From positions 96,001 through 160,000 of the IMG/VR virus record IMGVR_UViG_3300045988_052724: a stretch of DNA of 64,000 nucleotides. One strand, written 5' to 3'. The DNA comes from a virus. The position numbers and the translations under genes are program-made. Of this stretch, positions 3,496-45,977 are shown in pieces. Every line of letters starts with the position of its first letter. The stretch's first letter is position 1. The notes under the pieces were generated by a model. The model did not search any database. It had not been told where the DNA came from and worked only from the letters and a program-made list of their open reading frames with translations.

Positions 3496-3496
3496 A

Positions 3497-28200: not shown

Positions 28201-28914
28201 TTCAGGTGCATCAGCAAGAACCACATCCTTGTTAGCCTCTTGAGTGGCGTTGTCCTCTTCTTCTGAAGTACCGTAGTTAGGCTCCTCATTAGGCATACCA
28301 TCATAGGCGTACCTCTGATTGTTTCTAAAGTCACCAGAATCTATCTGGCAGTTAAATGCAAACTCTAACTTCTGTACCTTGTCTTGTAGTACTGATATAA
28401 CCTTTAACAGGTCTTGAATCACAGTACTGCTTGTCATATGTTCTTTATTCTCAGAAGTATCTATCCAAATACCTCCCTTATCTTCAGGTGGTGTATCCTG
28501 TATATAAATTTTGGAGAAGGATTCCCAAACAAATCCATTAAAGTAACGTATTTCATTAATATCATTAACGAATACTATTTGCCCCTTAACTCTAAGGTCA
28601 TCCCTATCAAGTAGTTCTTCTAAAGTGTCAACTACTACAATAGACATTCCTCCTCCTCCACCTCCTCCACCTCCTTGTACTTTCCATACGTTCCACACCC
28701 CGTTATAGAATTGATACATATGGTTGCTGTCAGGTGAATTTTTGACGTAACATAGCATACCCTCCTTTAACTTCTTTGTGTTGAGAAAGGCTTCCATATC
28801 ACTCATATTGGTAACTTGGATGTAACCACCACGTAAATCATTAACATCTGCTAGTGCAAAGCTAGCATTGTTCTTGGGTTTTAATTGACCAATTACCTCA
28901 ATATATTCATTCAT
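25219..28914 (-). CDS. Large protein (1231 aa) with a Gly9 linker, a lamin-tail-like domain and a purple-acid-phosphatase-like metallophosphoesterase domain
   Basis: LTD-like: HNFVELCNLGKKDLNLKGLYLHY…GDWVTLPL. Metallophosphatase motif series: VSDQQG, TGDQTQNG, VGNNDL, FCHEAPF, LCGHKHTY. Confidence 0.55.
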   Translation of the reverse strand: MNEYIEVIGQLKPKNNASFALADVNDLRGGYIQVTNMSDMEAFLNTKKLKEGMLCYVKNSPDSNHMYQFYNGVWNVWKVQGGGGGGGGGMSIVVVDTLEELLDRDDLRVKGQIVFVNDINEIRYFNGFVWESFSKIYIQDTPPEDKGGIWIDTSENKEHMTSSTVIQDLLKVISVLQDKVQKLEFAFNCQIDSGDFRNNQRYAYDGMPNEEPNYGTSEEEDNATQEANKDVVLADAPEPTEYKEYLPNAKHICIKSGTYAEMQANKGDFLPKELLWCYDTQTLWIKDPKTYKLIKIGSTGGGEDPGPGPDPETMDGILTEVIGSGSGAKTKIIGIEFADMTNKENTFLIQVKDGKLDIHDYRLDKNTLAGNAQTQGTGIYYTTPYFPIIPEEVGSKDSPKIYVNMVYCGGTSEDKDYNPVSHNFVELCNLGKKDLNLKGLYLHYTERNSGDWVTLPLIGTLKSQGTFLIKGAQCSVENINTTLIRVGEPDMYWTKDATLNNTRLEIAGDTGAGVQPHSIWSSKDDCIKFSYDCAFYISSEETTDYFKTTVMNSTAPWTTNGVIKWYVDLVGIGSYNDKSMPCEASPIATKGSNVLLMRYYNMDPVKQATKALSARSNVKDWTYINMDKINPAIDIQEYTPKNSSQNKNIFFNKHLLVEGTPNIVTCTLGHDAHKTRCFNWVSVGYYDEYIWIRKDGEDYTPENKFESFKKEDINSENESTNPNRPDNHKNWTNKIYNRIRSITTDGTPFTVHKFIKDFDEPADTQKYYYKVGRDGAWTEERSFTLRNRDKVIERGFNFLQVSDQQGFNAEEYEMWRVSAEYINSDKAENPYEWCLNTGDQTQNGNRFNEWIDYYKGGDVIYRDTEQMYSVGNNDLTPVDVYTLGDGEDKSKTNPANVEFFFTFEHPYTVPISSAGVYIPCCYSFVYGNTYFLSMNSEITELARTDVFGDIAGVNVYNDLKDWATADLAQHAADAKIKWKVAFCHEAPFTIITADLIMSYLKHNEGGSYDKNLDIKRGGSHLNTVGNYWFSQWLQDNAFKLCLCGHKHTYANSRYIRENPNRTMEPIVYDQSLSPTWYTNLPDRERQCVQISTDASLNYVRYVMCQATGYKLTSNKELPAKNIPWLLEYYPVSSQIENPNTNTATVKVNSAQQYPNYIIWNVGTGNEVEVPSMTTASRERILGKSYKLQLKDNTKVWAYKYNVPIAYTDLKKVGGNGATNPSNNIVIEKTLQ

Positions 28915-29811: not shown

Positions 29812-32800
29812 CTAATAACCTAAAGCCATCCAATTAATCATAGAGTTAACCGTTTCACAATTGGCTATAGTACAACTTGTTCTAGTGTAATTACCTGCTA
29901 CACAAACCTTGTCCCAGTTAGTTGCAGTTGTTTTATGTGTTACTTGTACCGATATACAAGCTGTTGGGAATGCAATCGGGAAGGATTTATGTCCCGTAGA
30001 ATTTGCACCTACATATGCTTCACCCCATTGAATTATAAATCCGTTAGGGAATTTAACATATCCAGAAGCGTCTTTAGAAGCTGCCCAATTTGAGTTCAGT
30101 GTAAAGTCTGACAATGCTTTATACCCACCAGCACCAAGTACTACATTATTATTACTACCACCTTTAGTTATATATGAACCATCGTGGTTATGGTTACTGT
30201 TTGCTTTAGAGTTAGGGTCAAAGTTCTTGGTATCCCATACTTTTACCCATCCATACCAATTGTCAGTAGTATCTCTTAACGCTCTGTACCACAATCCCAT
30301 ACCAGCAGTCCATCCTCCAGCAATTTCAACCGTACCTCCAGTACTTCTTCCAAATCCTATAACGGATGTATATGTAGTTGGTGCACCATTACTAGTTCCA
30401 CTAACTGTATTATAGGAGTACACATTACCTAGGTTTTGGGTTCTTCCTGTTTGTGGATTGAGGTTTCCTCTAGAATTTATATAGTTATGTGAATGGTCTG
30501 CAGGAGCGCCTCCAATATCAGCAAAAGACCATGAAACATTGGCAGAACCATTTACTGACTTAGTAGTATTACCAATAGTAAAGTTCCTAGCTGTTCCCCA
30601 ATAAGAGGTAGTAATATTTGCAGTACCGTCGAAGTTAGTTCCATTAATAGAGCGGGCTATTGTAAGTCTGTCTGCACTAGCAGCATGATTGGTATAACTT
30701 GAATTAGGTCTACTAACATTAGTGTTATAATTATTAGCCACAGTGCTTGAATAAGAAGTATTAGTAAACTGACCTGCCGATATACTACCACCATTATTAG
30801 TTACTGTATATTCAAGGCTTATATTAGTCCAATCGCTAGGTTGCCTTACTTGTACCTCCCAACTGTTGTTATTATATCGTACTATCCTAATCATATCCCA
30901 AGTACAATAAGGAGGAAGGTATAGATAACTTTGATTTAACATTGAGTCTGCAGTACCGCTATAAGCATACATTATCGCTTCAAATGGTATATCTATTACG
31001 TGCCCTTGATTGTGATTACCTGTTATATAGTAGATTGTACCTTTGACTTTACAGCTTTGATATTGCCCTCCACCTGTACAAACATAGGTTACTATCTTCT
31101 TCCAGTTCTTGTCTGTACCACCTCCCCATCTATCAACCCTGTATTTAGTTGAAGTAGTCCAGCCCATACTGAATGCTGCTTGGTGGTAGCCATCTAATAA
31201 ATCCGCATTTAAATTATTCCATTGTGCTGTACTACTAGATGTCATGTTAGAACCATTCCAAGTAAATCTATAGTTGTTTCCACCTCTCCATGAAGCACCC
31301 TGTTGGATAAATGCTAGTCCAGTTGCTCCGTTTAATCCTTGTAATCCAAGGCAGCCTCCGATATTACAGTCACCGAAACCGCAATCATCTCCAGCATTGT
31401 TTCTAGTACCATTAGCTAGATGTAATGCACCAGTCATAGTATCACCAGTAACATTAACATACCTACCGTCTATAATTCCAGCATAGTTATTAGTATCTAA
31501 CACTCTATACCATCCATAGTTAGTACCCCCTTGTATTCTTCTCCAGTAAATACCATCAGATGTATTTAAAGGGACTGCTATATCAGCGAAATACCCAGAA
31601 CCATTTCCATGATTCATTCTTAATATATGCCACCATTGAGCTGTTGGTCCAACATTCTGATTAGCAGCAGTACCAGCACCTAGATTTGCATTGAAGTAAG
31701 TTAATCCATTTAGTCCAAATGTTAACTGACTATTAGTAGCCAATCTCTTAGACCATTCAGCAGTACCATTTAAAGCACCAGTAAATGTTGGAGCTGTGAC
31801 TGTGCCAGGGAATATTGTATTTCCATTAGCATCCAATAATGTTGCTGTCCTCTTTATGGTAGTAAATACGCCCGTGTATTGTCTTACATATATAGGTTCA
31901 TCTCCATCATCACAAGAAGCTATCTCCATCCATCCTGCATTACTTGCAGTTCCCCCAAAAGCTATTCTACCATAATCGTTATCCCCACCTTGGAATCTAA
32001 CTTGCCTAGTTCCAGTAGTGCTAGCTTGGTTTATTATAATATCTCCGTTCTGGGTTAAGGTTCCATTGTTAGTAATACCAGTAGTGGTAAGTAATGCAGT
32101 AAATAAACCTCCACCAATAACATGAAGCTTCTGTGTTGGAGTTGTAGTGCCAATTCCTACATTTCCTAATCCAGTTAATACCATTTTAGCACTCATAGCC
32201 GGGTCTGTTCCAGCCTCTCCAACAGAACTCATAAAGGCTAGGTAATTATTATCATTAGTACCACTAAAGTATGGGGTTAATCCAAATTTATCACCAAAGC
32301 CATTCTCTTTCCAATATATAGTATTAGCACCCATTCCAAGAGTACCAGTCATGGTATCACCTGCTTTCTTTACGTAACGTCCGTCAGAATAGCTGGCGTA
32401 GTTTCCACTATGTATTAACACAACCCAATCATTCCACTTTGAATCATCATGCCTTCTGTATTTAATCGTGTTTGTATCATAATGGAAAGCTAACTGAGTA
32501 TTTCTTGTTGGAACGTCACCTAGACTTAGCACAGTAGTATTTGCAGATAGGGTAACATCATCCGTAGGTTTAGGGTCAATAGTAACTACGTTTCCATTTC
32601 CAAAATATTGGTTTACAGTAGTGTATCTACCTCTAAGCCAAGAACGCATAACACCCTCTCTTCCACTAAATCCTGCCAAATGTACTCCATCAAGCAAATC
32701 TGCATTTAAATTATTAACAAGCGTATTGCTTGAAACTATCAACGGTGATAACCCTGTGGCAACAGTTGACATAAACCTAGGTGCTCTCACATCATTTGGA

Positions 32801-35253
32801 GTGACACGTAAAACTAGCTTGTTGTTATGGTCTACGACACCAAATCCTGCACTATCCGTACTACCTCCTCTAAGGTTTCCTATATACCAGTATGTGTCAT
32901 ACCAGTTGAACCTTAATCCGTTTCTTATAGAAGTTAACCCACCATCATCGTTCCTGATAACTTCGTTATCTTTATAGATATTGGTAATATCACAATTTTC
33001 CAATCCCTTGAATACGATTGAGCTGGAAGTAGATGCGGATGTAAGTGTTCCAGTCATAGTATCGCCAGTCTTCTTAAGGTAACGTCCATCGAGAGTTCCT
33101 GCATAATTAGTAACATCTAATATATCTACCCAAGAACCATAGGAAGTAGAATCATTACCTGTACGATACTTTAGCCCACGTATGCCTTTTGTTGGTAATG
33201 CAAGTTGTGTAACCCAGGTCTTGTTTCCTACAATTCCCATATTAGAACCACCCCAGTTCATAGATATGATATGCCACCAGTTGCCGTTTATACCTGACTT
33301 TGTAGTCATTCCCATGTAATAACCATCGTAAGTGGCTGGGTCAAAGTCTTCTTCCTTGTAGAATATAAAGCTTTTAGCGTGTAACCCATCAAGTAAATCA
33401 GCGTTAAGATTACTTACTAAGGTATTACTAGCTACAACTAATGGTGCAGTTCCACTAGCTACTGTAGATATGATAGGAGTTGTAAACGTCTTGCTACCAT
33501 TAATAGTCTGTTCAGTATCTAATGTTACATATATAGGGTGTGTATGGTCTGTTGTTGATACTTTTTTACCATCACTATATAGACAGTTATCAGCACCAAC
33601 GTATACGTATCTATTACTGTATGTTTGAGGACTTTCAGTCTGTGATTCTGCTCCGATTAAGAATAACTTTGTGTTTATTAAATCAGTAGCTCCAGCTGTA
33701 TTTACAGTATCATTTCCAGGGTCTGCAGCTAAAGTTAAATTACCTTGGTTATCTGGAGTAATAAACATATTGTCTCCAGCAATGAAATTTACTTTCTTAG
33801 CTTCATAGCCATCAAACGATGTAAACTCGACTCCCTTTACTTGGAATGATAATGCATGATTCAATCTATCAGGTTTATTGGCCCATGTAGGTGTGCCAGA
33901 CTCATTGATTACTAGCATTTGCCCTACTGAACCGTTTGGTAGACCTTTTATCAACTTACCCGTTATACTATCAAACACTGCCAGTTGTCCTATTGTAGAG
34001 GATGAAGGTCCACTAACAACTCCAGTAGTATTAGTCTGAACATATGTCCACTTCTTAGAAACCTCTTCCCAGTTAGTACCATCAGAAGCAGCAGTAGCTT
34101 CCTTACATATAAGTAAGTCACCAACCTCTACCGACACTCCGTTTATATACCCCACACTATCCCTATAAGCACCATTACCAAAGGTTACAACATAAGTATT
34201 ACCTACATCTGCCATTGGTGTATAAGTACCTGGAGAAGATATACCAGCCTCTAATGCTCCCTTAAATAGCATAGCATTATTAGAGCCGAGGATACTATCA
34301 GCATAACTCTTAGCAGTTTCTATAGCGTTCCATACCATTAATGGGGATGCTGCAATAGCTGCAACTACGTTAGTGTCATTTATATTCTCATTATCACTTG
34401 ATGGGTCCGGCTTTCTACTTAATATGTCCTGCAGTTTTACGTGACCATATAATTTAGTAGAAGCACCACCATATTCTGGTTTTAGAGATAAGTGAATCTT
34501 AGGAGTAGCTTGTCCTTCTACATCTCCCTTTAGCTTACCAATAATATAACCATCTAATACAGAAACGTCTCCATGATTAACTGTTACTGCTCCATCGGAA
34601 GTCATTCCTCCTGCTATAGTTATTCTCTGTGTAGCATCATTAAATGTCAAACCATTAGCCTTTCTAACTTGAGATGTGTCCATATTATTATTAGCTTCAT
34701 TATAGGATAATAATACGTTCCTCTCAGCCATCTGATTAGATGGAGCTACCTGTTCAACATAGTCCCTAATCTCAATATTATGATTCTCTGCAAATGTTAT
34801 ATGTCCTGTAGCATCTACTATAAAGTTTGGAACAACAAACACACTAGCATTTCCTAGATTAGTTGATTGTCCATAAGAGCCTGAAGCTACACCGCTCTCC
34901 ATGTGTAATAACTTCCTATTAGAAGCATCCCACTTCAAAGGAGGTTCAGTATCCACTCTATTAAGTGCATTACTGCTGATAATAATTCTATTACCATCAC
35001 CTTTTCTAAGGCTAATACTGTCACCTGTAGGAGTTAGCAGGAAGAAGCTATTTCCTATTTGAACCTTAACAGAGCCGCTAACTTCTGATACTTCTATACT
35101 TGGATAGCCAATACTAAAGTAAGTACCACAAGTCCACATCTCTCTAGTATCCTCAATGAACACTACTGGATTAAGCCCTTCTGGTATTGTGGGTATTAGT
35201 GGCTCAAACTCTTCTTTCTTTCTAGCATATACAATCTTCTTATTTATTATCAT
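29812..35253 (-). CDS. Long tail fibre (1813 aa) with triplicated internal modules and a gp53-like C-terminal domain
   Basis: There are three copies each of GDTMTG(T/A)L and of PL(V/I)V(A/S)SNTLV(S/N)NLNADLLDG.H. The C-terminus is GYVKFPNGFIIQWGEAYVGANSTGHKSFPIAFPTACISVQV, which fits the tail-fibre C-terminal pattern G.iiQWG…FP.aFp. Confidence 0.8.
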   Translation of the reverse strand: MIINKKIVYARKKEEFEPLIPTIPEGLNPVVFIEDTREMWTCGTYFSIGYPSIEVSEVSGSVKVQIGNSFFLLTPTGDSISLRKGDGNRIIISSNALNRVDTEPPLKWDASNRKLLHMESGVASGSYGQSTNLGNASVFVVPNFIVDATGHITFAENHNIEIRDYVEQVAPSNQMAERNVLLSYNEANNNMDTSQVRKANGLTFNDATQRITIAGGMTSDGAVTVNHGDVSVLDGYIIGKLKGDVEGQATPKIHLSLKPEYGGASTKLYGHVKLQDILSRKPDPSSDNENINDTNVVAAIAASPLMVWNAIETAKSYADSILGSNNAMLFKGALEAGISSPGTYTPMADVGNTYVVTFGNGAYRDSVGYINGVSVEVGDLLICKEATAASDGTNWEEVSKKWTYVQTNTTGVVSGPSSSTIGQLAVFDSITGKLIKGLPNGSVGQMLVINESGTPTWANKPDRLNHALSFQVKGVEFTSFDGYEAKKVNFIAGDNMFITPDNQGNLTLAADPGNDTVNTAGATDLINTKLFLIGAESQTESPQTYSNRYVYVGADNCLYSDGKKVSTTDHTHPIYVTLDTEQTINGSKTFTTPIISTVASGTAPLVVASNTLVSNLNADLLDGLHAKSFIFYKEEDFDPATYDGYYMGMTTKSGINGNWWHIISMNWGGSNMGIVGNKTWVTQLALPTKGIRGLKYRTGNDSTSYGSWVDILDVTNYAGTLDGRYLKKTGDTMTGTLTSASTSSSIVFKGLENCDITNIYKDNEVIRNDDGGLTSIRNGLRFNWYDTYWYIGNLRGGSTDSAGFGVVDHNNKLVLRVTPNDVRAPRFMSTVATGLSPLIVSSNTLVNNLNADLLDGVHLAGFSGREGVMRSWLRGRYTTVNQYFGNGNVVTIDPKPTDDVTLSANTTVLSLGDVPTRNTQLAFHYDTNTIKYRRHDDSKWNDWVVLIHSGNYASYSDGRYVKKAGDTMTGTLGMGANTIYWKENGFGDKFGLTPYFSGTNDNNYLAFMSSVGEAGTDPAMSAKMVLTGLGNVGIGTTTPTQKLHVIGGGLFTALLTTTGITNNGTLTQNGDIIINQASTTGTRQVRFQGGDNDYGRIAFGGTASNAGWMEIASCDDGDEPIYVRQYTGVFTTIKRTATLLDANGNTIFPGTVTAPTFTGALNGTAEWSKRLATNSQLTFGLNGLTYFNANLGAGTAANQNVGPTAQWWHILRMNHGNGSGYFADIAVPLNTSDGIYWRRIQGGTNYGWYRVLDTNNYAGIIDGRYVNVTGDTMTGALHLANGTRNNAGDDCGFGDCNIGGCLGLQGLNGATGLAFIQQGASWRGGNNYRFTWNGSNMTSSSTAQWNNLNADLLDGYHQAAFSMGWTTSTKYRVDRWGGGTDKNWKKIVTYVCTGGGQYQSCKVKGTIYYITGNHNQGHVIDIPFEAIMYAYSGTADSMLNQSYLYLPPYCTWDMIRIVRYNNNSWEVQVRQPSDWTNISLEYTVTNNGGSISAGQFTNTSYSSTVANNYNTNVSRPNSSYTNHAASADRLTIARSINGTNFDGTANITTSYWGTARNFTIGNTTKSVNGSANVSWSFADIGGAPADHSHNYINSRGNLNPQTGRTQNLGNVYSYNTVSGTSNGAPTTYTSVIGFGRSTGGTVEIAGGWTAGMGLWYRALRDTTDNWYGWVKVWDTKNFDPNSKANSNHNHDGSYITKGGSNNNVVLGAGGYKALSDFTLNSNWAASKDASGYVKFPNGFIIQWGEAYVGANSTGHKSFPIAFPTACISVQVTHKTTATNWDKVCVAGNYTRTSCTIANCETVNSMINWMALGY

Positions 35254-35631: not shown

Positions 35632-38460
35632 CTATTCTAATACTATCGTTTTACTTAAATCAAGACCTTGCACCAACTTCTCTAATGCTGTAAGTCTTTC
35701 AACTAAGGCTTCAGTTCCAGTGGAAGAAGATGTTATAAATTCCTTATTAAATGTATATGTCGTTTTAGTTCCTACTACTAATGTAAATGTTAACTTCAAG
35801 TCCTGAAGTTCATCATAGTGAAACATCATTACCACTTCTACAGTTCTAACATCATCAGTGTCTTTGGTATCTGTAGCTGTCTTTCTATAAGCCGTTACAA
35901 ATTTTAAAGTTGCATATTCTAATGTTACTAATCTAGCCTTGGATAAAGCTACTATAAAATCGTGTGCATCTTCAGCCTCAGTATAATAATCAGATAGGTT
36001 CTCAGACAGATAAAGAGCCTTCTCAATATGCATGACATAGCCCTGCACATCTGACTTAAATACATTAAGTAGTCCTATCTGTTCTTTTACGTATGTATCA
36101 TTATAATTCTCGAGTGATTGTAACTTAGCTTTGTTCTCATTAGTAAAGTCATTAGTAGACAATCCTTTACCTTCAACCTTATCAACCTTAGTACTAATGT
36201 CTGGAAGTTCACTCTTTAGAGCATAATTACTTAAATCAGTTTCTGGAATATTAGCTATAGCTTGCTTGACATACTCTTCAGTAGCTAAGCCTACTATACT
36301 AGGAATTTCAGGTTTCCCAACTAAGTCTTGATACTCACCGGAGAATAATTCACTTCTATCTGCTTTGCCACCTAATGTAGTATTTATTGCAGCGATGTCT
36401 TTATTATTCTTTATAATTGCATCTCCGACCTCTTTGAATGTGTTATAAGAAGGGTCAGAATCTTGAGTAAGTATGTCAAACTGCTGTCTAGTAAAGTTGT
36501 TAGCTATCTCAAGTATTTCTGCTGCTGTCCCAGCCCTTTCTGCACCTAACTCTTCGAGGGTATATGTAGGTTTATTAGGTTGTTTAGCCCACTCAGGAAC
36601 AGTTGGGTCAGTTTCAGTATAGCTAGTTAGAAACCCTTTACTATTCAATTCTTCTTCAGTAACTAAGTTATTTGGAATTGTTGTTAAGTAATGTTTATCA
36701 TTCTCTAACTGAGATACTTTAGTAGGTACATCCTCTATATCGGCTTTATTACTAACATCAGGGATTTCACTCCTATCTGCTTTTGTGTTAACCTTCTCAT
36801 CAACTTCTTTAATCAGTTCTCTAACACTAGTATCACTATAGTTAGTTAGCCCTTTTAGTTTATTCTTCTCTTCTAATGTAAAGCTTTGCTCAGATAAGCC
36901 CATTCCTTGGACTTTGTCTACCTTGTTGTTCCAATTTTGTATATCAGTAGTGTTTATAGTTGCAGCTGCACTAGCTATAAATGCCGGCTCAATCTCTTCT
37001 GTTAAATACCCTCGGCTATCAAGCTCATGCTTTGTAACATATTCGTCTGGAATATCTGTAATGTAGTGAGAGTCATTCTCTAGTTGAGATACCTTAGTAG
37101 GTACGTCTTCTATGTCTGCCTTACCTGATACATCTGGAATTAGTGCTTTAACTTCATCCTTAGTATAATAATTATTAAGCTGAATGTCTCCTGATTCTAT
37201 GTCCTGCAACTTCTTATCAATTTCTTCCTTAGTGTAGACAGTATACTTATCAACTTTAGATGCTAAAAGCTCTTTAATTGTAGTAGTGTCAAACCCTTTA
37301 GAATCAAATCCAGCTTGACTTAATATTTCTATTGTTGTTTCCCCAAGCCCTGCATTAGCACTCTTGAATATATAGTATATATTACCAAATATTTCCTGTG
37401 TACCTAAGAGTCTAAATCCACCAATAATATTACTAACTGCCAACACTGCACTGGAGCCATTTGGAATCATAACGTATATGTACTCACTGCCATTTGCAGT
37501 AGTAGTAAATATATTGTCAATAGTCTTGTTTAACTTAGTATAGTCTGGTGAGGTTCCATAGTAGTTAGGATATTTAATGTCAAATGTTACTACCTTTACA
37601 GCAGTAATATCCTCATATTTATATCGTAACGTAATAACCATAGAAGTAGTCATTCCAGCAAATGTATACTGCCTAGCTTCAGGCTTAAGAGTTACACCAT
37701 TAATTGTCTGCTCAGTTACATCTTTGTAGTATTCCCAAGTTACAGTTACATCAGTAGGCTCATCACCATAACTCATATACTCTGGGTCTACTGATATGGC
37801 TTTAATATTTTCATCTATAGCTGCTGCTTCAATTCTAGCATTAACCCATTCAGTAGATGCAATCCTATTAGAACTATCTGTCATTAATGGTAATGTAGTA
37901 GTTGGAGTTCCAGTAAACTTAGGTGAGTATATGTCAGCTTTGTTATTTAATCTTATTTCAATTTCACACGCCCATTGAGCAAGTTTTAGATTTATTTCAT
38001 CAATTACCTTATTAATATCAAAGGCTATTGAATCAGTCACAAAGGTATATAAATCTTTTTGATTAGACAAGTTACCTTTGATGTTTCCCCACTTTAGAGC
38101 ATATTCATCTGCTATACCAAGATTAATTCTGGCTATAGTTCTCTGATACTCATCAGTTAACTCTGAGAATAGATTCTCCTTTTGGAATCCATCATCCCCG
38201 CCAGTACACCCATAATATTTAGAAGTATCACAATCATCCTTAATACAGATGTGGTCTACTCCTTCCTCTTCTACTTTTACACTGTCTATCTTGTCTATTG
38301 TAATAACACCATAGTCAGCACAGATTCCTTCTACCTCTTCCTTCTCAATAACTCCGTCAATTATTTTAGTATCGGGCTTTATATTGGAAATAGAATGAGG
38401 ATAATCGGGTAAAATGGGGGCATCCTGTTCTTGTTCATCAAGACGTATAAACTCTGCCAT
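35632..38460 (-). CDS. Tail fibre (942 aa) with internal duplicated modules
   Basis: Duplicated peptides are KADIEDVPTKVSQLEND(S/K)HY and VDKV.G.GLS…F…EK.KL. The C-terminal part is coiled-coil. Confidence 0.75.
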   Translation of the reverse strand: MAEFIRLDEQEQDAPILPDYPHSISNIKPDTKIIDGVIEKEEVEGICADYGVITIDKIDSVKVEEEGVDHICIKDDCDTSKYYGCTGGDDGFQKENLFSELTDEYQRTIARINLGIADEYALKWGNIKGNLSNQKDLYTFVTDSIAFDINKVIDEINLKLAQWACEIEIRLNNKADIYSPKFTGTPTTTLPLMTDSSNRIASTEWVNARIEAAAIDENIKAISVDPEYMSYGDEPTDVTVTWEYYKDVTEQTINGVTLKPEARQYTFAGMTTSMVITLRYKYEDITAVKVVTFDIKYPNYYGTSPDYTKLNKTIDNIFTTTANGSEYIYVMIPNGSSAVLAVSNIIGGFRLLGTQEIFGNIYYIFKSANAGLGETTIEILSQAGFDSKGFDTTTIKELLASKVDKYTVYTKEEIDKKLQDIESGDIQLNNYYTKDEVKALIPDVSGKADIEDVPTKVSQLENDSHYITDIPDEYVTKHELDSRGYLTEEIEPAFIASAAATINTTDIQNWNNKVDKVQGMGLSEQSFTLEEKNKLKGLTNYSDTSVRELIKEVDEKVNTKADRSEIPDVSNKADIEDVPTKVSQLENDKHYLTTIPNNLVTEEELNSKGFLTSYTETDPTVPEWAKQPNKPTYTLEELGAERAGTAAEILEIANNFTRQQFDILTQDSDPSYNTFKEVGDAIIKNNKDIAAINTTLGGKADRSELFSGEYQDLVGKPEIPSIVGLATEEYVKQAIANIPETDLSNYALKSELPDISTKVDKVEGKGLSTNDFTNENKAKLQSLENYNDTYVKEQIGLLNVFKSDVQGYVMHIEKALYLSENLSDYYTEAEDAHDFIVALSKARLVTLEYATLKFVTAYRKTATDTKDTDDVRTVEVVMMFHYDELQDLKLTFTLVVGTKTTYTFNKEFITSSSTGTEALVERLTALEKLVQGLDLSKTIVLE
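36698..36764 (-). repeat. Intragenic direct repeat, copy A
   Basis: A 67-nt segment is about three-quarters identical to 37073-37139. The offset of 375 nt is in frame. Confidence 0.7.
37073..37139 (-). repeat. Intragenic direct repeat, copy B
   Basis: See copy A. It encodes IPDVS.KADIEDVPTKVSQLEND.HY. Confidence 0.7.
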
Positions 38461-38462
38461 AT

Positions 38463-39443
38463 TTAGATTTGAATAATTTGATAAGCATATGTCATAGGGT
38501 CTAAGAAGGATATAATTGTAGCCTCATTAACCTTATGAATTGTTTTAGTAATGGTCATTGATAAGCTAGTATCTCCAATAGGAAATACTTTATTATATAA
38601 TGAACCTTCCATATAACATACGTTCTCATTGAACATATTATTAACGGAATTCCATCTTAAAGTTGTATCATGACAACCTCTTAGGAAGGTATTACCTCTA
38701 CAGTCTGCTTCTAGCACATTATCGTAAGTATCACCTAGAAAGATATTATTAGTACATCCTTGTTTTAATTCATTATGCTTAGTATTATGTAATTCAGAGC
38801 TGTCAGTGATAACTCCTCCAGTTAAGTCTGAGAATGTATAGAAATCTCCATATGCTGCCCCAAGATTAAGATTAGTATTATCTAACTCCTCCGCAGTTCT
38901 TCTGAATTTAATATTCTTGAAATCATAGTGAGCTGAATTGAAATGATTGTCTCTCATAAATGTTATCCTACCTTTAGTGGTAGCCCCATCTTCGAGAGTT
39001 TCTTTAGTAGGGTCATATTCAATAACCCAATCCTTCATTTTATTATCATCAATAACAATCCTTGGGTCTAATCTGTTATTAGTAATAGCTGTTACAATTA
39101 ACTTCCAAACAGGAGAAGGGTTAGTGGAGTCTTCAGTACCCCACGTAACCTTTTGACCTGAATTATTAGTAACATTAGAAGAGTAAATAGTTTGAAAGTC
39201 TGTAATAACATACCTTGCTCCTGTTATTAAGCTATTCTTACTTATGTAATCATTAAGTAGCGTATATGTCACTTCCAATGGCTTAGCTTGTCCGCCTTCT
39301 CCGCTATAATCAATAATACCTATATTCTTCCTTAACTGTTCCTGCTCTAGTTCGGTTAAACCTCCTAGTAAGTCTTTCTTCTTGAAATAATTATTCAAAT
39401 CATGAATACAGGCATAACGTCTTGTATCCCTTTCTATTGCCAT
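38463..39443 (-). CDS. Hypothetical tail-module protein (326 aa)
   Basis: Track ORF. Confidence 0.6.
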   Translation of the reverse strand: MAIERDTRRYACIHDLNNYFKKKDLLGGLTELEQEQLRKNIGIIDYSGEGGQAKPLEVTYTLLNDYISKNSLITGARYVITDFQTIYSSNVTNNSGQKVTWGTEDSTNPSPVWKLIVTAITNNRLDPRIVIDDNKMKDWVIEYDPTKETLEDGATTKGRITFMRDNHFNSAHYDFKNIKFRRTAEELDNTNLNLGAAYGDFYTFSDLTGGVITDSSELHNTKHNELKQGCTNNIFLGDTYDNVLEADCRGNTFLRGCHDTTLRWNSVNNMFNENVCYMEGSLYNKVFPIGDTSLSMTITKTIHKVNEATIISFLDPMTYAYQIIQI

Positions 39444-39630: not shown

Positions 39631-40402
39631 CTCCTCCTATAGTATTCTTATCAATCATAACATCTCTACAAATTCCTCCGCACTGAGTAACATCCTCTAA
39701 TACTCTCTGAGCTTCGTAATACTGTCCCAGCTCAATTAGATATTTAATAATATTGATAGCCATCCATATAATATCTCTATTGTAGATTAGTGATTTAACA
39801 TCATCAAGCCTATTCTTGCACCTTCCAGGTAAATCTCCTAAAAGATTTTTACATAGTCTGTAAAAGCATTCATTAATATGGCATATACAGAACGTATTCT
39901 TATCACCTCTGATAATCGTAGTAGTTTTCTCAGTGACAGTAGATGGGGGTGTAGCATTCACCTCTAATACCTCTTCTATAGTTACCTCAACAGACTCTTC
40001 ATCAACATACTTCATAAATACTTCAGATTTGGTATCATAGTAGTAAATAGAGTTATAAGCTGTTAAAGCAGTTGCATTCCTCTCTAACACATAATCCAAC
40101 CATGCATCAGTGGGTAGTATTATATGTGTAACTTCATATAAACCGTCAATAGGCATTTCCATTTCAGATTCATCAATACAATCTATAACGTGTTCAACAA
40201 TGTCATACTTCTGTGTTATTTCTTCTCCAGAAGATTTAATACTTGTTATAGCATTAATAGTTACAGTTTGACTGTAGGTATAATTACGAGTACTTACTGC
40301 AACTTCTCCATCCTCATTTAAGTATTCATCATTGTCTTTCTCTAGCCCAGTGATTGTAATACCGCAGGCTCCCTTCTTGCATATTTTAAATACTGAATCC
40401 AT
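39608..40402 (-). CDS. Hypothetical protein (264 aa), Cys/Gly-rich C-terminus
   Basis: Track ORF ending in …IGGGGCGCNN. Confidence 0.55.
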   Translation of the reverse strand: MDSVFKICKKGACGITITGLEKDNDEYLNEDGEVAVSTRNYTYSQTVTINAITSIKSSGEEITQKYDIVEHVIDCIDESEMEMPIDGLYEVTHIILPTDAWLDYVLERNATALTAYNSIYYYDTKSEVFMKYVDEESVEVTIEEVLEVNATPPSTVTEKTTTIIRGDKNTFCICHINECFYRLCKNLLGDLPGRCKNRLDDVKSLIYNRDIIWMAINIIKYLIELGQYYEAQRVLEDVTQCGGICRDVMIDKNTIGGGGCGCNN

Positions 40403-40404
40403 AA

Positions 40405-40782
40405 TTATACGTTGAAGTCAGCTCTTACTTTAGTTTTGATTTCTCCTACCAGTGTAAGATAATCTAGGTATTTCTGTCTATCAGTTTGATTATCAGATAA
40501 ACCTAAAACAATACTATTGGAGCTGTTAATTAAATCAAACTCTTCATCTTGGTCTACATACTGTCTAATAATAGCTTTAATGCATTCTTTGTGGTCTGGT
40601 TGACCATGTAGATGAACTTGTATATATGTCCACCTTGTTTCCTTCGTTACATCTTCTGTTTCTGGGTCTGTAACATTAACCTCTTTTGATTTAATATCAT
40701 AGTTATAGTAATATGTACCATTACCTAATTTCTCTATTAAGTCTGGCTGCACATCCATTTCTATTCTTCTTGGTTCTAACAT
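40405..40782 (-). CDS. Hypothetical acidic protein (125 aa) overlapping the 3' end of the RT gene
   Basis: Track ORF with a 62-nt overlap with the RT ORF. The true start is uncertain. Confidence 0.45.
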   Translation of the reverse strand: MLEPRRIEMDVQPDLIEKLGNGTYYYNYDIKSKEVNVTDPETEDVTKETRWTYIQVHLHGQPDHKECIKAIIRQYVDQDEEFDLINSSNSIVLGLSDNQTDRQKYLDYLTLVGEIKTKVRADFNV

Positions 40783-41977
40783 AAGGTCTTATTTTAAAAT
40801 TTACTGGGAATGAATATCTGGTTAGAGAGTAGAATAGATTCCTACTCTTACTCTCAAAGTAATAGGATTTATTATTGTATACAAGGTTAACTCTAGAACA
40901 CTTACTATAGCCAACTATATCTACAATATGAATGTACTTGTTATAAAATCTTGAAATATTAGATTTCTTCCCATCCCAATTAGAGAATCTCAAACCTGTA
41001 TCTCTTTGAATCTTCCTTAGTAGATTCTTAGAATTACAAAACTTTAGCCAACCAAAATATGATTGCATTCTCCTTCTTAATTCTTGTTTATCAATCTTGC
41101 CTGATTGATACCTTCTAATAAGCTTGAATAATCTAATCTTAATTGACTTCCTTAATAATACATGGGTATGATAGAACCTATAACCTACAAAGTCTACACC
41201 TCTATCATCTACTGGGAATATTTGGTAATTTGATTTTAACCTTAAATTTAGAACCTCCTTTAAGTACATCTTAATTGCTATAAGTATGTTTCTCAAGAAG
41301 TTCTTATCACTGCTGAGAATTACAATATCATCAGCATACCTGAAATAGAATTTACACTTTAACTCCTCCTTGACCCAATGGTCAAAGTAAGCTAAATATA
41401 GATTAGCAAAGAACTGAGATAAGTAATTACCTATAGGAACCCCATCGGCTGAATAGATAATCCCAATAAGTAATGTTAGAAGATATTTGTCCTTTATCTT
41501 CTTTTTAATTATATCACATAATATATCGTGGTTTACAGATGGGTAAAACTTCCTAACATCCATCTTCAAACAATATATAGTTTCTTCTGGATGTTCAATT
41601 AATGCAGTCTTTAAGTCATGAGCTACATTATGAATACCTCTATTCTTAATACAAGAGTAAGTCTGCTTAATAAATATTTTAGTCCAAATAGGTTCCATCA
41701 CGTTCATTATAGCGTGATGTGTTATTCTATCTGGATAGTATGGTAGTCTAAATATCAACCTTTCTTTAGGTTCATATACTTTAAAGGTACTATATTCAGA
41801 GGTTTCATATACCAAGTCCCTTAGCTGCTCAGATAACCTCTCATTCTCATTTTGTCTATTTCTATCGTGCTTAACGATTCCCCATCTAATTGATTTATTC
41901 TTTCTAGCCTTATCATCAGCTATTTCGATATTCTCTATATCATAAACCTGTTCATGTAAATAACCTATACGTTTCAA
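40721..41977 (-). CDS. DGR-type reverse transcriptase (418 aa), TTG start
   Basis: RT motifs are present: KERLIFRLPYYPDRITHHAI, then IGNYLSQFFANLYL (the DGR-characteristic I/LGxxxSQ), then FRYADDIVILS (YxDD). The only start available after the upstream in-frame TAA is the TTG at 41977-41975. The gene is adjacent to the TR. Confidence 0.85.
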   Translation of the reverse strand: MKRIGYLHEQVYDIENIEIADDKARKNKSIRWGIVKHDRNRQNENERLSEQLRDLVYETSEYSTFKVYEPKERLIFRLPYYPDRITHHAIMNVMEPIWTKIFIKQTYSCIKNRGIHNVAHDLKTALIEHPEETIYCLKMDVRKFYPSVNHDILCDIIKKKIKDKYLLTLLIGIIYSADGVPIGNYLSQFFANLYLAYFDHWVKEELKCKFYFRYADDIVILSSDKNFLRNILIAIKMYLKEVLNLRLKSNYQIFPVDDRGVDFVGYRFYHTHVLLRKSIKIRLFKLIRRYQSGKIDKQELRRRMQSYFGWLKFCNSKNLLRKIQRDTGLRFSNWDGKKSNISRFYNKYIHIVDIVGYSKCSRVNLVYNNKSYYFESKSRNLFYSLTRYSFPVNFKIRPYVRTKKNRNGCAARLNREIR

Positions 41978-42122
41978 GTCTTATATATTTATTATGGAAG
42001 CGTTCGAGACTTAACCTACTAACACCCAGTTATTAAATACTACGTTGTCTTTTGCCAAGAGGCAAGGGTACTATTTAGACTGTAAAATGAAACCAAATTA
42101 CCTAAATAAAGAAATATATAAT

Positions 42123-42224
42123 AAGCCTACATTGGAATTGACATTGCTGACTCCATTGTTAGAATTGAAGTTACTAAGACTGGCATTACTACCATTATTA
42201 GCGTTGCTGCTAACGATGAGTGTT
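42123..42224 (-). repeat. DGR template repeat (TR)
   Basis: A 102-nt match to 42333-42434. All 17 differences lie at TR adenines on the coding strand. The TR sits between the target stop and the RT. Confidence 0.9.
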
Positions 42225-42304
42225 TGTAGTAATTTGAATTAATCAGCACCAACAGAAGTGTAGGTAAATAGCACCCCTAATCTCGTATTTTATCTGTTTA
42301 TGTA

Positions 42305-44245
42305 TTATTGAGTTATTCTGTTTAATGTTCTGAAGCCCACATTGGAACCGACATTGCCGACCCCATTGTTAGAATGGAAGTGACTAAGACCGGCATCACC
42401 ACCATTAGAAGCGCCGCCGCCAACGATGAGAGTTCTTAAAGATGTACTAGCAGCATTGCACCAATGATAGTCACACATATAAGTAGTAGCTGAACCACCG
42501 ACTACTGAAGGTATAATTTCACCCTTACTTCCAAGGTCAAAATCCTTTGTATATCCATCAGACACTATTTCTTTACCTGCAACAGTCATTTTACCTTTAG
42601 CAGTATTATCATCTCCAAATGCACTCGGATTAGATGTAGTATACACACTACTTGGTTGATTAGCTGCTGTTCTTTCTAAGATAATACCATCTAGGTTTGT
42701 CCAAATGTCTCCGAATGGATTGTCAAATCCCCTCCACCTTGGAACTTTAAATGTCTTAGTGGGGACTGTTGCAGATTCATTCACTATGGTCTCTGGAATA
42801 ACTAACTCCTTAATTCCAGTGAAGTTACCAATATCATTACAATATCCGCATGGTGTTATTGGATAAGTCCCATTATATCCAGACCACCCATTAGCATTGT
42901 TGTTCCAATCAGTAATTCCGGGACCAAGTCCTCCTTGATGATAACCATCAGCTGTTAACTCAGCGTTATAAGTAGCTTGTGAATTAAATGTTGCATATTC
43001 AATAACCCAAGCCCAGTAGAATATCCACTTGTAATATTCATAGCATAGCATTTCTGAACCAGCATTAGTGGCATAAGTTCTCATGTTTGCTCTTGAAATA
43101 TTAGTTCTTGGTTTACCTAAGTCACTTCTAAATTTATCAGATGATAGATATGTATCGTTAGCTGTTCTATTACCACCACCTCTAAATTGAGCTGTAGTGT
43201 TAACTACTGATACAGCCTTATTACCAGTCTGGTTCACCGTACTCCTATAGGCATCTAACAGCATTTCTGGAATCTCTACCCATGTATCATCACATTTAAC
43301 TGTAGAAATTCTAACCCATCTCTTATTACCTTCAACTCCAGACTTACCATAGAATTTGGGAATGTGTACTCTTACAGTACCATCAGTCCCATCAAGGACA
43401 GAAGGGGTTCCATCAGCTTTCTTAGACCAATCGTTAGGGTCTAAATAATAATTAACTTTAGCACCATTAGCTACACAACCCTTATATTGAGATTGCACTG
43501 GTAATGACTTATGTAGCAATGGATTACCAATTCTAGTTAATGTGGGGTCTGCTACTGTAGAATCCCATTCAACTCCATAGGAGTAAATATCTTCCAATCC
43601 AGTTAAATCAATACCAGGCTCTACATCTTTCCATTCTCCAGTACCATCGCCACTGTTGACTAACACCTGCCCTACTGTACCACCAGCAGGTAGATGTTTA
43701 TTTCCAGCTGTAGTTGGATGGGTATAGTTATTAGCATTGGCAGCAATACCTTGCAATTTATTCTTCTCACTTGTTGTATAATCATTGGTAGATAATTGCT
43801 TACCATCAACCTTATCAACCTTTAGAGCAAGTGCACTAGTAGTTCTACCTTCTACTCCTTCAATTGCTTCATTAACCTCGGCCTTAGTATAATAATCTTT
43901 TAAGTTTACGTCTACGTGTTTATTTCCTAAGAACTCCCAGCCAGTCTTTTGTTCTGTAATAAGATAAATATATTCATCATATACATCATTTGTTCTTGAG
44001 CTTTCGTTAGGAATTAGGTAGATTTTATTTACATCTCCCTTTGCAGGTAATTCAGTAACAACTACTGTCTTACCGCCAGCATTATTAATTGCTTCTATAA
44101 CCCATGCCTCTGTTGCTAACCCTTCTTTGATTTTAGAAATAGTAGCTGACTTATTACTTCCGTTCTGTACTATAGGAACTAACTCATCTCCAGCAAGGGT
44201 GTTAGTAGCATCCATTTGAGATATTTTTACTCCTGTTGCTGCCAT
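42305..44245 (-). CDS. DGR target: tail fibre/receptor-binding protein (646 aa) with a variable C-terminus
   Basis: The N-terminus has a fibre-type pattern. It carries the shared module VDKVDGKQLSTNDYTTSEKNKLQGI. The C-terminus ends …NVGFRTLNRITQ and contains the VR. Confidence 0.85.
   Translation of the reverse strand: MAATGVKISQMDATNTLAGDELVPIVQNGSNKSATISKIKEGLATEAWVIEAINNAGGKTVVVTELPAKGDVNKIYLIPNESSRTNDVYDEYIYLITEQKTGWEFLGNKHVDVNLKDYYTKAEVNEAIEGVEGRTTSALALKVDKVDGKQLSTNDYTTSEKNKLQGIAANANNYTHPTTAGNKHLPAGGTVGQVLVNSGDGTGEWKDVEPGIDLTGLEDIYSYGVEWDSTVADPTLTRIGNPLLHKSLPVQSQYKGCVANGAKVNYYLDPNDWSKKADGTPSVLDGTDGTVRVHIPKFYGKSGVEGNKRWVRISTVKCDDTWVEIPEMLLDAYRSTVNQTGNKAVSVVNTTAQFRGGGNRTANDTYLSSDKFRSDLGKPRTNISRANMRTYATNAGSEMLCYEYYKWIFYWAWVIEYATFNSQATYNAELTADGYHQGGLGPGITDWNNNANGWSGYNGTYPITPCGYCNDIGNFTGIKELVIPETIVNESATVPTKTFKVPRWRGFDNPFGDIWTNLDGIILERTAANQPSSVYTTSNPSAFGDDNTAKGKMTVAGKEIVSDGYTKDFDLGSKGEIIPSVVGGSATTYMCDYHWCNAASTSLRTLIVGGGASNGGDAGLSHFHSNNGVGNVGSNVGFRTLNRITQ
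42333..42434 (-). repeat. DGR variable repeat (VR)
   Basis: It lies within the last ~43 codons of the target and encodes LIVGGGASNGGDAGLSHFHSNNGVGNVGSNVG. The TR-encoded version is LIVSSNANNGSNASLSNFNSNNGVSNVNSNVG. Confidence 0.9.
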
Positions 44246-44442
44246 GTTTCACTATTTAATATTTCATTTAATTCTACACTGTCGTATGGGTAGAATATAA
44301 TCTCTTCATCATTATTAATAACTGGTTTAATGAAATCTTCATGTAGAATTACTTCTGAGCTATCTAAGCTCCTTCTTGCGTGGATGGGAGGAACAATCCC
44401 ATGTTCCATACACCATTCTATTGTTACTATAACGTATCTCAT
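44227..44442 (-). CDS. Hypothetical small protein (71 aa)
   Basis: Track ORF overlapping both neighbours by a few nt. Confidence 0.5.
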   Translation of the reverse strand: MRYVIVTIEWCMEHGIVPPIHARRSLDSSEVILHEDFIKPVINNDEEIIFYPYDSVELNEILNSETWQQQE

Positions 44443-45977
44443 TGTGTTATTATATTTTTAAGTACATAATCAATCAAATCCTGTTCGGTGAATCCGTCAG
44501 TTTCCTTGGTAGGAACTGAATCGAATAAGATAGATTTATAAAACGCCATAGAGCCAAATCTAGTCTTATTGTTGCTATCCGACAAGAATAATGACATATT
44601 TGTACCAGTTTGTCCATAAGTACCTGCTAGAGTTGCCTTCTCTTCACCTACATAGCAAGTCATTAATTCATTATTTGCCGAGAGAACATAACTGATTTTA
44701 TCCTCTACACTAGGCGTAAACTTAAAGTCTGTATAAACGTAGTTACCGAACTTTACAGAATTTGCACTTCGTCCTTGCAATAACATCCATCCTCGATTAC
44801 TTGTCGCTATTGAAGTTGTCGAGAACATACCTTTAAGAGCGGTAGGTCTTATGATAGCACATTGGAAGAACATCATGTAATTTTGCAGTGATTTAAAGTT
44901 CTCCACAACACCGTAATCATCCGCTCCATCAGTTACTAGTGAGTTGGGATATTTAGGCAGGAACTCTATTGTTACGTCCATATCTCCTATATCCCCTGTA
45001 ACTCCTATGGCGTTATACAATGAAGTGGTTCCTTCGGGATAGGTTAATGTCACCTCATGTTCTCCGTTGTCAAAAGTATAAAATCCGCCATTTCTGTTTA
45101 CCAAACTAACTTGTCTGCCATCAGAAAGACCTGTAACCTTAAACTTATGCGTTGGGTTAGAGTTTGCCGGAACTATGTTTACCATGTTATCCGTAGTGGA
45201 TAGTTTTTTAGTAATATGAATAATTCTGTTATCTGTAACAGTAACATTTGCTCTATCGGGTAGAATATTGGTGCTAGAAATGTCATACCCTCCCACACCG
45301 CTCATTGCAGCGAACAGGAAATTGTTAAGTTTCAATCGTCTGTTGTTTCCACTGAAATCCTGCAAATAAGGATTAGCTTTTAGTATTTCGTTTGTGGGAA
45401 CGGATTGTCCTGACGGGAGCTGGGTAATGGTGATATTACAAGCACCGACTATGTTTATACTCCTAAAACCTATATTTCCTGTTACACTATTAATAGGTTC
45501 TAGTGTATAAGTTCCATTTTTAGGCATCCTTACCAATGGATCGTTATTATATCCCCATGCTATTTCTTGACCGTCCAATAATCCATCTACCGTAATCGTT
45601 ATGCCATTAAACTTTTTAGATTTGGCGATATATATAGACGCATTATTTACGGCATCAAAATTTGTTATATTGACGCTCTTATTTGTCACGGTATATTTTG
45701 CTCCTGTGAATTTCGTCCAATCATTAAAGTTTTCCGCATAAACATCCACAGGCTTTGACATATCATACCAAAACACCATGTGTTCTTTCACCCAGGTAGC
45801 GATTTCATCTTCTGTAACATATTTATCTAATAATATATGCTTACCTCTTTCAGTAAGTACAGCGATTTCATCTTCTGTAATTATATAGTAATCGTTAGGC
45901 CCAATTGGTTGCCCTCCGCCATCACCAATCTGCCTAACTCTACCTATATAATTACCAATACCTACAAATATTCCCAT
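44439..45977 (-). CDS. Hypothetical structural protein (512 aa)
   Basis: Track ORF in the operon. Confidence 0.6.
   Translation of the reverse strand: MGIFVGIGNYIGRVRQIGDGGGQPIGPNDYYIITEDEIAVLTERGKHILLDKYVTEDEIATWVKEHMVFWYDMSKPVDVYAENFNDWTKFTGAKYTVTNKSVNITNFDAVNNASIYIAKSKKFNGITITVDGLLDGQEIAWGYNNDPLVRMPKNGTYTLEPINSVTGNIGFRSINIVGACNITITQLPSGQSVPTNEILKANPYLQDFSGNNRRLKLNNFLFAAMSGVGGYDISSTNILPDRANVTVTDNRIIHITKKLSTTDNMVNIVPANSNPTHKFKVTGLSDGRQVSLVNRNGGFYTFDNGEHEVTLTYPEGTTSLYNAIGVTGDIGDMDVTIEFLPKYPNSLVTDGADDYGVVENFKSLQNYMMFFQCAIIRPTALKGMFSTTSIATSNRGWMLLQGRSANSVKFGNYVYTDFKFTPSVEDKISYVLSANNELMTCYVGEEKATLAGTYGQTGTNMSLFLSDSNNKTRFGSMAFYKSILFDSVPTKETDGFTEQDLIDYVLKNIITQ

Follow-up and report, generated by a model that had tools for sequence, protein, structure and literature searches.

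Organization of the locus and the repeat pair

The window analysed here is a stretch of 64,000 nucleotides (nt) from the IMG/VR virus record IMGVR_UViG_3300045988_052724 (positions 96,001 to 160,000 of that record), and all positions below refer to it unless a relative is named. The locus at 40721-44245 lies on the minus strand and contains, in the direction of coding, a gene for a 646-amino-acid (aa) tail protein (42305-44245; phrog_5302 'tail protein', E 2.4e-89) that ends in a variable repeat (VR, 42333-42434, encoding residues 605-637), a non-coding template repeat (TR, 42123-42224), a conserved spacer, and a gene for a 418-aa reverse transcriptase (RT, 40721-41977) with a TTG start codon. 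An earlier note, made from the letters of the sequence, had proposed that these parts form a diversity-generating retroelement (DGR). The present analysis supports this proposal, and a complete DGR lacking an Avd gene, which diversifies the tail protein of a crAss-like phage by mutagenic retrohoming, is considered to be the correct reading with a probability of about 93%. CrAss-like phages rank with the most abundant human gut viruses, and the way in which they track the variable surfaces of Bacteroidales is an open ecological question. A DGR acting on a crAss-like tail protein is a mechanism already known in that phage group and does not represent a new type of system.

The repeat pair provides the most direct evidence. 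As described in the earlier note, TR and VR align without gaps at an offset of 210 nt, and each of the 17 mismatches falls on a TR position with T on the plus strand, hence with adenine on the coding minus strand. Half of the TR adenines (17/34) are substituted, and none of the other 68 positions differs. The probability that all 17 mismatches would land on the 34 adenine positions out of 102 is 2.4e-10 (hypergeometric), and a pattern fixing the non-adenine positions only has exactly two copies in the 64-kb window, with 0 expected from shuffled sequences. The length of 102 nt holds for the aligned span; position 42122 is also a T/A mismatch and the next base is not, so the homology covers 102-103 nt. 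The TR is placed within the 327-nt gap between the target and RT genes, and the VR lies within the coding open reading frame (ORF) of the target. In the VR frame, which is that of the target, the TR reads T-LIVSSNANNGSNASLSNFNSNNGVSNVNSNVG, and its adenines lie in 11 AAY and 6 AGY codons. Adenine substitution could generate approximately 5.7e17 different peptides from it and never a stop codon. The translations of both repeats quoted earlier, as well as the protein ending ...VGFRTLNRITQ*, were reproduced. Two short ORFs over the TR (42045-42242 on the plus strand and 42127-42252 on the minus strand) are without homologues and were taken as chance occurrences.

Variation among natural copies

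A megablast search of 40400-44300 against 50,697 phage records yielded zero matches, and relatives of the locus were found via protein search instead. Comparison with these relatives, a check that had been proposed together with the original claim, came out in its favour, in that the VR varies almost only at TR adenines and the TR is constant. Across the eight closest genomes, the TR is identical save for one C>T change in a single genome (locus L009), which is also present in the VR of that genome, as is predicted by transfer from TR to VR. The VR of these genomes is polymorphic at 27 of the 34 adenine positions versus 2 of the 68 other positions, one of the two being the mirrored change just mentioned. 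The contrast is also evident in a single pairwise comparison: between the window and its relative L003, the rest of the target (99.6%), the region from VR to RT (99.2%) and the RT (99.8%) are nearly identical, and the VR is 81% identical. A protein-guided scan of IMG/VR yielded 80 related loci. Approximately 70 loci (of 82 in the wider set) were found to have a VR-TR pair, 92-107 nt long, in which 14-28 adenines and hardly any other bases mismatch, a count that is weakened as support by the heavy penalty set on non-adenine mismatches, which favours adenine-only tracts. A k-mer repeat scan of the related loci missed the TR/VR pairs owing to the density of mismatches.

Natural protein variants show the same pattern on a larger scale. 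The best 120 protein matches of the target are separate entries with 96-98% identity, 112 of which have a length of 646 and were analysed. Their variation is concentrated in residues 605-636, where 12 positions carry 10-14 different amino acids, and non-consensus residues account for 25.8% within the VR versus 0.68% outside it. Almost all VR cells (3687/3696, 99.8%) are reachable by changes of TR adenines alone, and Lys, Glu, Gln, Met and Trp have zero occurrences at any AAY codon. The RT, by contrast, collapses to one 90% cluster of 2690 members. The lineage is diversifying now. Hundreds of near-identical genomes with differing VRs, all within reach of adenine mutagenesis of one constant template, offer unusually clean natural evidence for a DGR that is currently running.

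The type of substitution was also recorded in the VR/TR pairs of 69 loci. Where a TR adenine is four-fold synonymous, the VR was seen to have G 153 times, A 31 times, T 6 times and C once; in the window, such adenines are at TR positions 4, 73 and 97 (42221, 42152 and 42128). At these sites, which are without selection at the protein level, 84% were changed and 96% of the changes were A>G, and TR adenines before G or C were changed almost only to G. In cells, the RT of phage BPP-1 (bRT) displays a cytosine-dominated misincorporation that depends on the 3' neighbour (PMC12875486); the A>G bias observed here fits this behaviour, but the changed fraction is much higher. Selection at the nucleotide level, for example, on G-rich VR elements needed for homing, may also play a part. 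In addition, at the six positions where the TR has an AGY codon for Ser (residues 609, 610, 616, 619, 621 and 630), Gly is encoded in 107-112 of the 112 natural VRs, so that either the A>G bias yields Gly in most homing events or non-Gly products are lost.

The reverse transcriptase

The RT matches RVT_1 (E 5.7e-18) and phrog_1423 (E 1e-113), and its TTG start codon aligns with the ATG of relatives. The motifs pointed out in the earlier note were found at residues 182-188 (IGNYLSQ, which conforms to the motif 4 signature [I/V/L]GxxxSQ of DGR RTs) and 214-217 (YADD), and the protein stays within the DGR clade with its catalytic residues (D140, D216 and D217) kept. Its best sequence match in the PDB is bRT (8ub7; E 8.4e-44, residues 6-328), followed by a group II intron RT (9e-16). 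The AlphaFold2 model, with a predicted local distance difference test (pLDDT) score of 86.4, also has 8ub7_A as its best structural match in Foldseek, with a target-normalised template-modelling (TM) score of 0.93 and a root-mean-square deviation of 1.9 Å. The equivalent residues include R73, I182 and D140 of the window RT, which correspond to R74, I181 and D138 of bRT, as well as YADD at 214-217 in place of YMDD and the SQ pair at 187-188. R74 and I181 of bRT are known to promote adenine mutagenesis (PMC7826257). By sequence and predicted structure, therefore, the window RT groups with DGR RTs.

A C-terminal extension distinguishes this RT from bRT. The protein runs approximately 90 residues past the end of bRT, and residues ~330-400 (40778-40990) are predicted to form a small beta-rich domain that is absent from bRT, followed by a tail whose last 18 residues are disordered in the model. 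The extension is conserved (58-98% identity among 56 RTs) and modelled with a pLDDT of 80-90, with strands at 348-356, 361-367, 370-376 and 392-396 and a helix at 379-386; zero relatives of the domain were found in the PDB or Pfam. A series of RT homologues (P0242-P0260) show 85-94% identity at about 100% query coverage, yet have only 368-399 aa, which suggests frequent natural truncations or small deletions near the C-terminus.

RNA elements around the template repeat

Between TR and RT lies a 145-nt spacer whose conservation extends across phage families. Its core (41968-42073, minus strand) is related to the Rfam family RT-17 (RF03020), with a full-length match at 41976-42069 (27.7 bits, E 0.026) and matches at the same syntenic place in five of seven relatives, and it is a divergent relative of RT-17, not a curated member. 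RT-1 to RT-19 were described as orphan motifs near RT genes, among which RT-10 lies in the TR-RT spacer of BPP-1, and the authors guessed that further RT motifs serve other DGRs (PMC5737381).

Several helices were identified in the spacer. Hairpin P1 (UUGCC-UCUU-GGCAA, 42052-42065, minus strand) is followed by the conserved sequence AAAAGAYAACGUAG, and helices P2 and P3 (41997-42026, minus strand) enclose a conserved UAGUAG...CGAA. In 14 diverse spacers, P1 is 100% paired with three of its five pairs changed on both sides, and for the P1-P3 structure as a whole, 92% of cells are paired and seven pairs are changed on both sides, a level that was reached by 0 of 500 shuffles; controls with slid positions gave at most 55%. 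An alternative register of P2, shifted by one column, gave a worse fit with no pair in the helix changed on both sides and was rejected. A covariance model (R1) built from the alignment of these spacers found matches in 77 of 88 sources, one for each locus and always between TR and RT, with a single match in the window and none in relatives that lack a DGR.

Two long-range duplexes were also found. The first brackets the TR, with an upstream arm GGGUGCUAUUUA (42265-42276, minus strand) pairing with a downstream arm UAAAUAGUACCC (42066-42077, minus strand) that abuts hairpin P1. Nine lineages have compensatory versions of this duplex, and for 12 of 15 loci its length was attained in only 0-28 of 2000 shuffles; cr7_1, cr55_1 and cr50_1 yielded no such duplex. 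The second, priming-like duplex joins UUAUAUAUUU (42112-42121, minus strand), one base 3' of the TR, to AAAUAUAUAA (41981-41990, minus strand), 3 nt before the RT start codon. It forms a perfect helix of 7-11 bp and exists in five different complementary versions among lineages; shuffling gave a helix of at least this length in 8-109 of 5000 cases. The single-sequence fold of the 376-nt region is no better than that of shuffled sequences (z = -1.28); the RNA structure is established by comparison across loci only, and the AU-rich duplex is of low complexity.

A related arrangement was observed in Bacteroides phage Versailles, a non-crAss DGR (locus L087, 3805-4138), in which the P1 stem CUUACC...GGUAAAA is split by an inserted hairpin, ACUAUC...GAUAGU. 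The Versailles spacer was recognised by neither Rfam RT-17 nor model R1, implying that the spacer RNA family is broader than these models capture.

The diversified tail protein

The N-terminal part of the target is fibre-like and carries a repeat motif of 28/29 aa, and its C-terminal part is a variable-protein module. In crAss-like phages, its homologues bear the annotation of a tail or tail-collar fibre protein. By sequence, the target has no match in Pfam, NCBIfam or the PDB, and profile searches also gave none in Pfam and the PDB. The C-terminal 437 residues (42308-43618, minus strand), which end in the VR, were modelled by AlphaFold2 as a predicted ligand-binding module with a pLDDT of 96 and a predicted TM score of 0.94. 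Modelling had been suggested earlier as a check for a C-type-lectin fold, and the best matches of this model in the PDB are indeed variable proteins of DGRs: the top eight Foldseek hits (E 1.9e-4 to 3.5e-2) consist of TaqVP (5vf4, E 1.9e-4) and Mtd (1yu4, E 1.6e-3), the latter in five variants. They are followed by the formylglycine-generating-enzyme (FGE)-like proteins CalU17, PvdO and EgtB, and TvpA was matched more weakly (E 1.3). TaqVP, Mtd, FGE-like proteins and TvpA all have the C-type-lectin fold, and the C-terminal module of the target is predicted to adopt a C-type-lectin/FGE-like fold as well. The module is widespread, since 2019 clusters at 50% identity match it (E<=1e-3), joined to very different N-terminal parts. 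Word-index protein searches with the target gave near-identical VR variants only, and a library of representatives was needed to obtain such diversity.

The idea that the target shares fibre modules with its neighbours was partly borne out: one motif of ~29 aa is common to the target and the 942-aa ORF at 35632-38460 (E 4e-6), and none is shared with the ORF at 44439-45977. This motif is the 28-aa shaft unit, whose window copy lies at target residues ~139-167. In other loci (L009, L028, L030 and L033, at locus positions ~3427-3651), the 84-nt unit is present in tandem in one to three or more copies, and the number of repeats accounts for the target lengths of 646, 675, 706 and 732 aa.

Layout of the cassette and the gene after the reverse transcriptase

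The cassette had been called canonical, which is correct for the order of its parts (target with VR, TR, RT) but not for their full set, as there is no Avd gene of the kind found in the Bordetella prototype. A 125-aa ORF (40405-40782, minus strand; phrog_11557) overlaps the end of the RT gene by 62 nt and was considered as an Avd candidate. Its homologues come after the RT in cr7_1, cr55_1, cr50_1 and Versailles, but the family also has members immediately after the target homologue of two phages without TR, VR and RT (cr111_1 and a Porphyromonas phage). The candidate was rejected for this reason, and the gene is assigned to the tail module. The TR-RT unit appears to have been inserted between the tail protein gene and the 125-aa gene. 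The 125-aa protein is acidic, has no known function and always follows a tail protein of the C-type-lectin type; it may be a chaperone or partner of the tail protein.

Proposed mechanism and alternative explanations

If the cassette works as its parts suggest, an RNA of ~300 nt that contains the TR would be transcribed from just past the target stop codon to the RT start, and the complementary DNA (cDNA) made from it would replace the VR, so that the last 33 codons of the target would be rewritten at 11 AAY and 6 AGY codons. Priming would occur in cis from the spacer: if BPP-1 is taken as a guide, AAAUAUAUAA may provide the primer with its last A (~41981), in which case adenine 42122, the exact edge of the TR/VR homology, would be the first templated base. 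The route by which the cDNA would be integrated and the working of the cassette without Avd are inferred as well. A bolder suggestion, which should be regarded as tentative and is more doubtful than not, is that the RT and the RNA form an Avd-independent ribonucleoprotein (RNP), in which the ~70-aa beta domain of the RT replaces the Avd barrel and the RT-17-like RNA with its long-range duplexes acts as the priming scaffold. If true, this would give RT-17 a function, namely that of a scaffold positioning a spacer adenosine for priming at the 3' edge of the TR, and the cis-priming/stop architecture of BPP-1 would be older than, and independent of, Avd.

Several observations weigh against a working DGR of this form. 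An Avd-type Pfam family was found in none of the 46 small ORFs of the 64-kb window, which covers part of a genome of roughly 186 kb, and the interval between VR and TR encodes nothing, yet bRT needs Avd. Most DGRs, albeit not all, carry Avd or some other accessory gene. The absence of Avd has been reported to be normal for this RT lineage (PMC7290462). Moreover, a BPP-1-type GC-rich initiation of mutagenic homing (IMH) element, or a hairpin or cruciform 3' of the VR, was not found; the VR ends in ...UCCAAUGUGGGCUU, has a fixed G versus A in the TR at three positions near its 3' end (73, 77 and 97), and the sole inverted repeat in 42225-42345 is the palindrome ATTAAT. The TM-scores of the target model to solved variable proteins are modest (0.39-0.44), which is attributed to the model having more than one domain. 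The RT-17 scores (27.7 in the window and 28.1-32.9 in relatives) are below the gathering threshold of 40.4, and the helices were partly defined by eye on sequences that were later counted for covariation. Finally, the population evidence bears on the lineage, not on this particular genome, the activity of whose cassette we infer from its intact parts.

Switching of receptor tropism, the function expected in the earlier note, is plausible, judging from homology and fold. It is also conceivable, if rather improbable, that the DGR is active and its diversified domain binds not the infection receptor but other glycans (for example, those of capsule variants, of mucus or of non-host surfaces), or helps the phage to escape a host defence directed at this protein. 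The C-type-lectin fold is a general ligand-binding scaffold, and the fibre-like proteins encoded at 35632-38460, 38463-39443 and 44439-45977 could carry the primary receptor binding. On the other hand, the annotation of the homologues as tail or tail-collar fibre proteins and the structural match to Mtd, which is the tropism determinant of BPP-1, speak for the receptor, and the published view of crAss-like DGRs, in the part of the literature considered, is one of adaptation to host surfaces (PMC12386605).

A fossil cassette, whose VR was diversified formerly and in which homing has ended, is very unlikely in this genome, even though decayed cassettes do exist in close relatives: locus L011 has a 585-nt deletion in its RT, and its VR keeps 17 adenine mismatches. 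In the window, the RT ORF is intact with all catalytic and signature residues kept, the TR and every RNA helix are likewise preserved, the VR differs between genomes whose flanks are 99.6-99.8% identical, and the large RT cluster described above fits purifying selection. The deletion in L011 (IMGVR_UViG_3300045988_023872) corresponds to window 41336-41920 and leaves the TR and the spacer RNA intact, so that the cassette of this relative seems to have been disabled recently and its VR to be frozen. The last alternative, an ordinary duplication or recombination beside an unrelated RT (retron, group II intron or defence RT), deserves almost no credence. The NCBIfam matches to group II intron, retron and Drt models that point to it are far below their cut-offs, bRT outranks every other match by a wide margin, and an Rfam search of 40300-44400 gave neither a group II intron RNA nor a retron RNA. 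Duplication cannot account for adenine-only mismatches together with adenine-restricted population variation.

Comparison with known diversity-generating retroelements

The closest published counterparts of this Avd-less DGR are the cassettes in crAss-like phages of the Zeta group, which were described in 2025 in 18 of 43 genomes (PMC12386605). According to the passages of that description on DGRs, they have the same order of a tail fibre protein with VR, TR and RT, a C-terminal C-type-lectin domain in the target, RTs with GxxxSQ and a long variable C-terminus (up to 414 aa, compared with 418 aa here), and mostly no Avd, as is the case here (PMC12386605). The same passages contain neither an RNA scaffold nor adenine-restricted variation at the population level, both of which are described here, and they leave open whether the cassettes still operate (PMC12386605), a question that the population evidence presented above addresses.

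Another relative is found in crAssphage LMMB (Intestiviridae), the first DGR reported for crAss-like phages (2020), which belongs to RT lineage 3 of Wu et al. and has the same architecture of target, VR, TR and RT without avd (PMC7290462). Its RT is 56% identical to the window RT over 97% of the length, including the C-terminal extension, and its target is 29% identical. LMMB has the same spacer RNA with compensatory changes in P1 and both long-range duplexes. It belongs to another phage family, however, and differs in its VR-TR distance (270 versus 210 nt) and in having one or two non-adenine mismatches versus zero here (PMC7290462). Among named cassettes, that of cr7_1 is the nearest to the window (its target is 58% and its RT 54% identical).

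With the cassette of BPP-1 (Mtd, Avd, TR and bRT), the window shares the RT fold, the active-site residues and the confinement of differences to adenines. It differs in lacking avd, in the extra conserved ~70-aa domain of the RT, in the absence of a GC-rich IMH/cruciform 3' of the VR, and in its RT-17-like spacer, the BPP-1 spacer being RT-10 (PMC5737381). The functional elements of the BPP-1 RNP comprise a duplex of the TR flanks, a neighbouring stem-loop with adenosines after it, and a TR:spacer duplex in which spacer A56 is offered as the primer (bioRxiv 10.1101/2023.10.23.563531), and the arrangement of helices in the window (flanking duplex, hairpin with adenosines and priming-like duplex) matches this description. 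RT-17 itself (Weinberg et al. 2017) shares P1 (CCUUGCC-UCNU-GGCAAAA) and the UGGUAG...CGAA core and is located just upstream of an RT; it was published without an assigned function, whereas here the related RNA lies between a TR and a DGR RT (PMC5737381). What this locus adds to current knowledge is the population evidence, an RT-17-like RNA with two covarying duplexes in an Avd-less DGR, and a conserved extra RT domain. A 418-aa RT and a ~300-nt RNA with mapped helices would also make a compact Avd-less system for mechanistic work.

Genomic context

The source of the window is most likely a crAss-like phage of the Zeta group. The crAss-like assignment relies on Pfam matches to CrAss_Ring_1 and CrAss_Ring_2 among the 46 small ORFs, on a crAss-type portal (matching phrog_6547, with 22-26% identity to ICTV Crassvirales portals), and on giant ORFs. 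The window has a GC content of 35.8% without stop-codon recoding, and its relatives are on contigs of ~180-190 kb. Within the Zeta phages, the 'group 1' genomes are described as having 182-189 kb, 36.4-36.6% GC, no stop-codon recoding and a DGR, at least in the relevant passages (PMC12386605); the window and its relatives fit this group in GC and length, a likeness of description and not of sequence. For annotation purposes, this is an ordinary DGR locus, whose features to label are the target, VR, TR, spacer RNA and RT.

Downstream of the tail genes are four giant ORFs on the minus strand, 17477-25222, 25219-28914, 29812-35253 and 11722-15117, of 2581, 1231, 1813 and 1131 aa, respectively, which presumably encode the crAss-type virion RNA polymerase and cargo proteins. 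Other Pfam matches among the small ORFs include Amidase_3 (1.6e-31), a PD-(D/E)XK nuclease and NUMOD1/GIY-YIG homing-endonuclease domains, as well as a ferredoxin-thioredoxin reductase catalytic beta chain (6.1e-15), which is unusual for a phage. In more distant relatives, in-frame TAG codons were observed in the target genes of cr7_1 (L001, 5128-7245; 14 codons), L079 (6) and L081 (8), and internal stops are also present in the small ORF after the cr7_1 RT. The TAG codons agree with the amber recoding known for some crAss-like phages.

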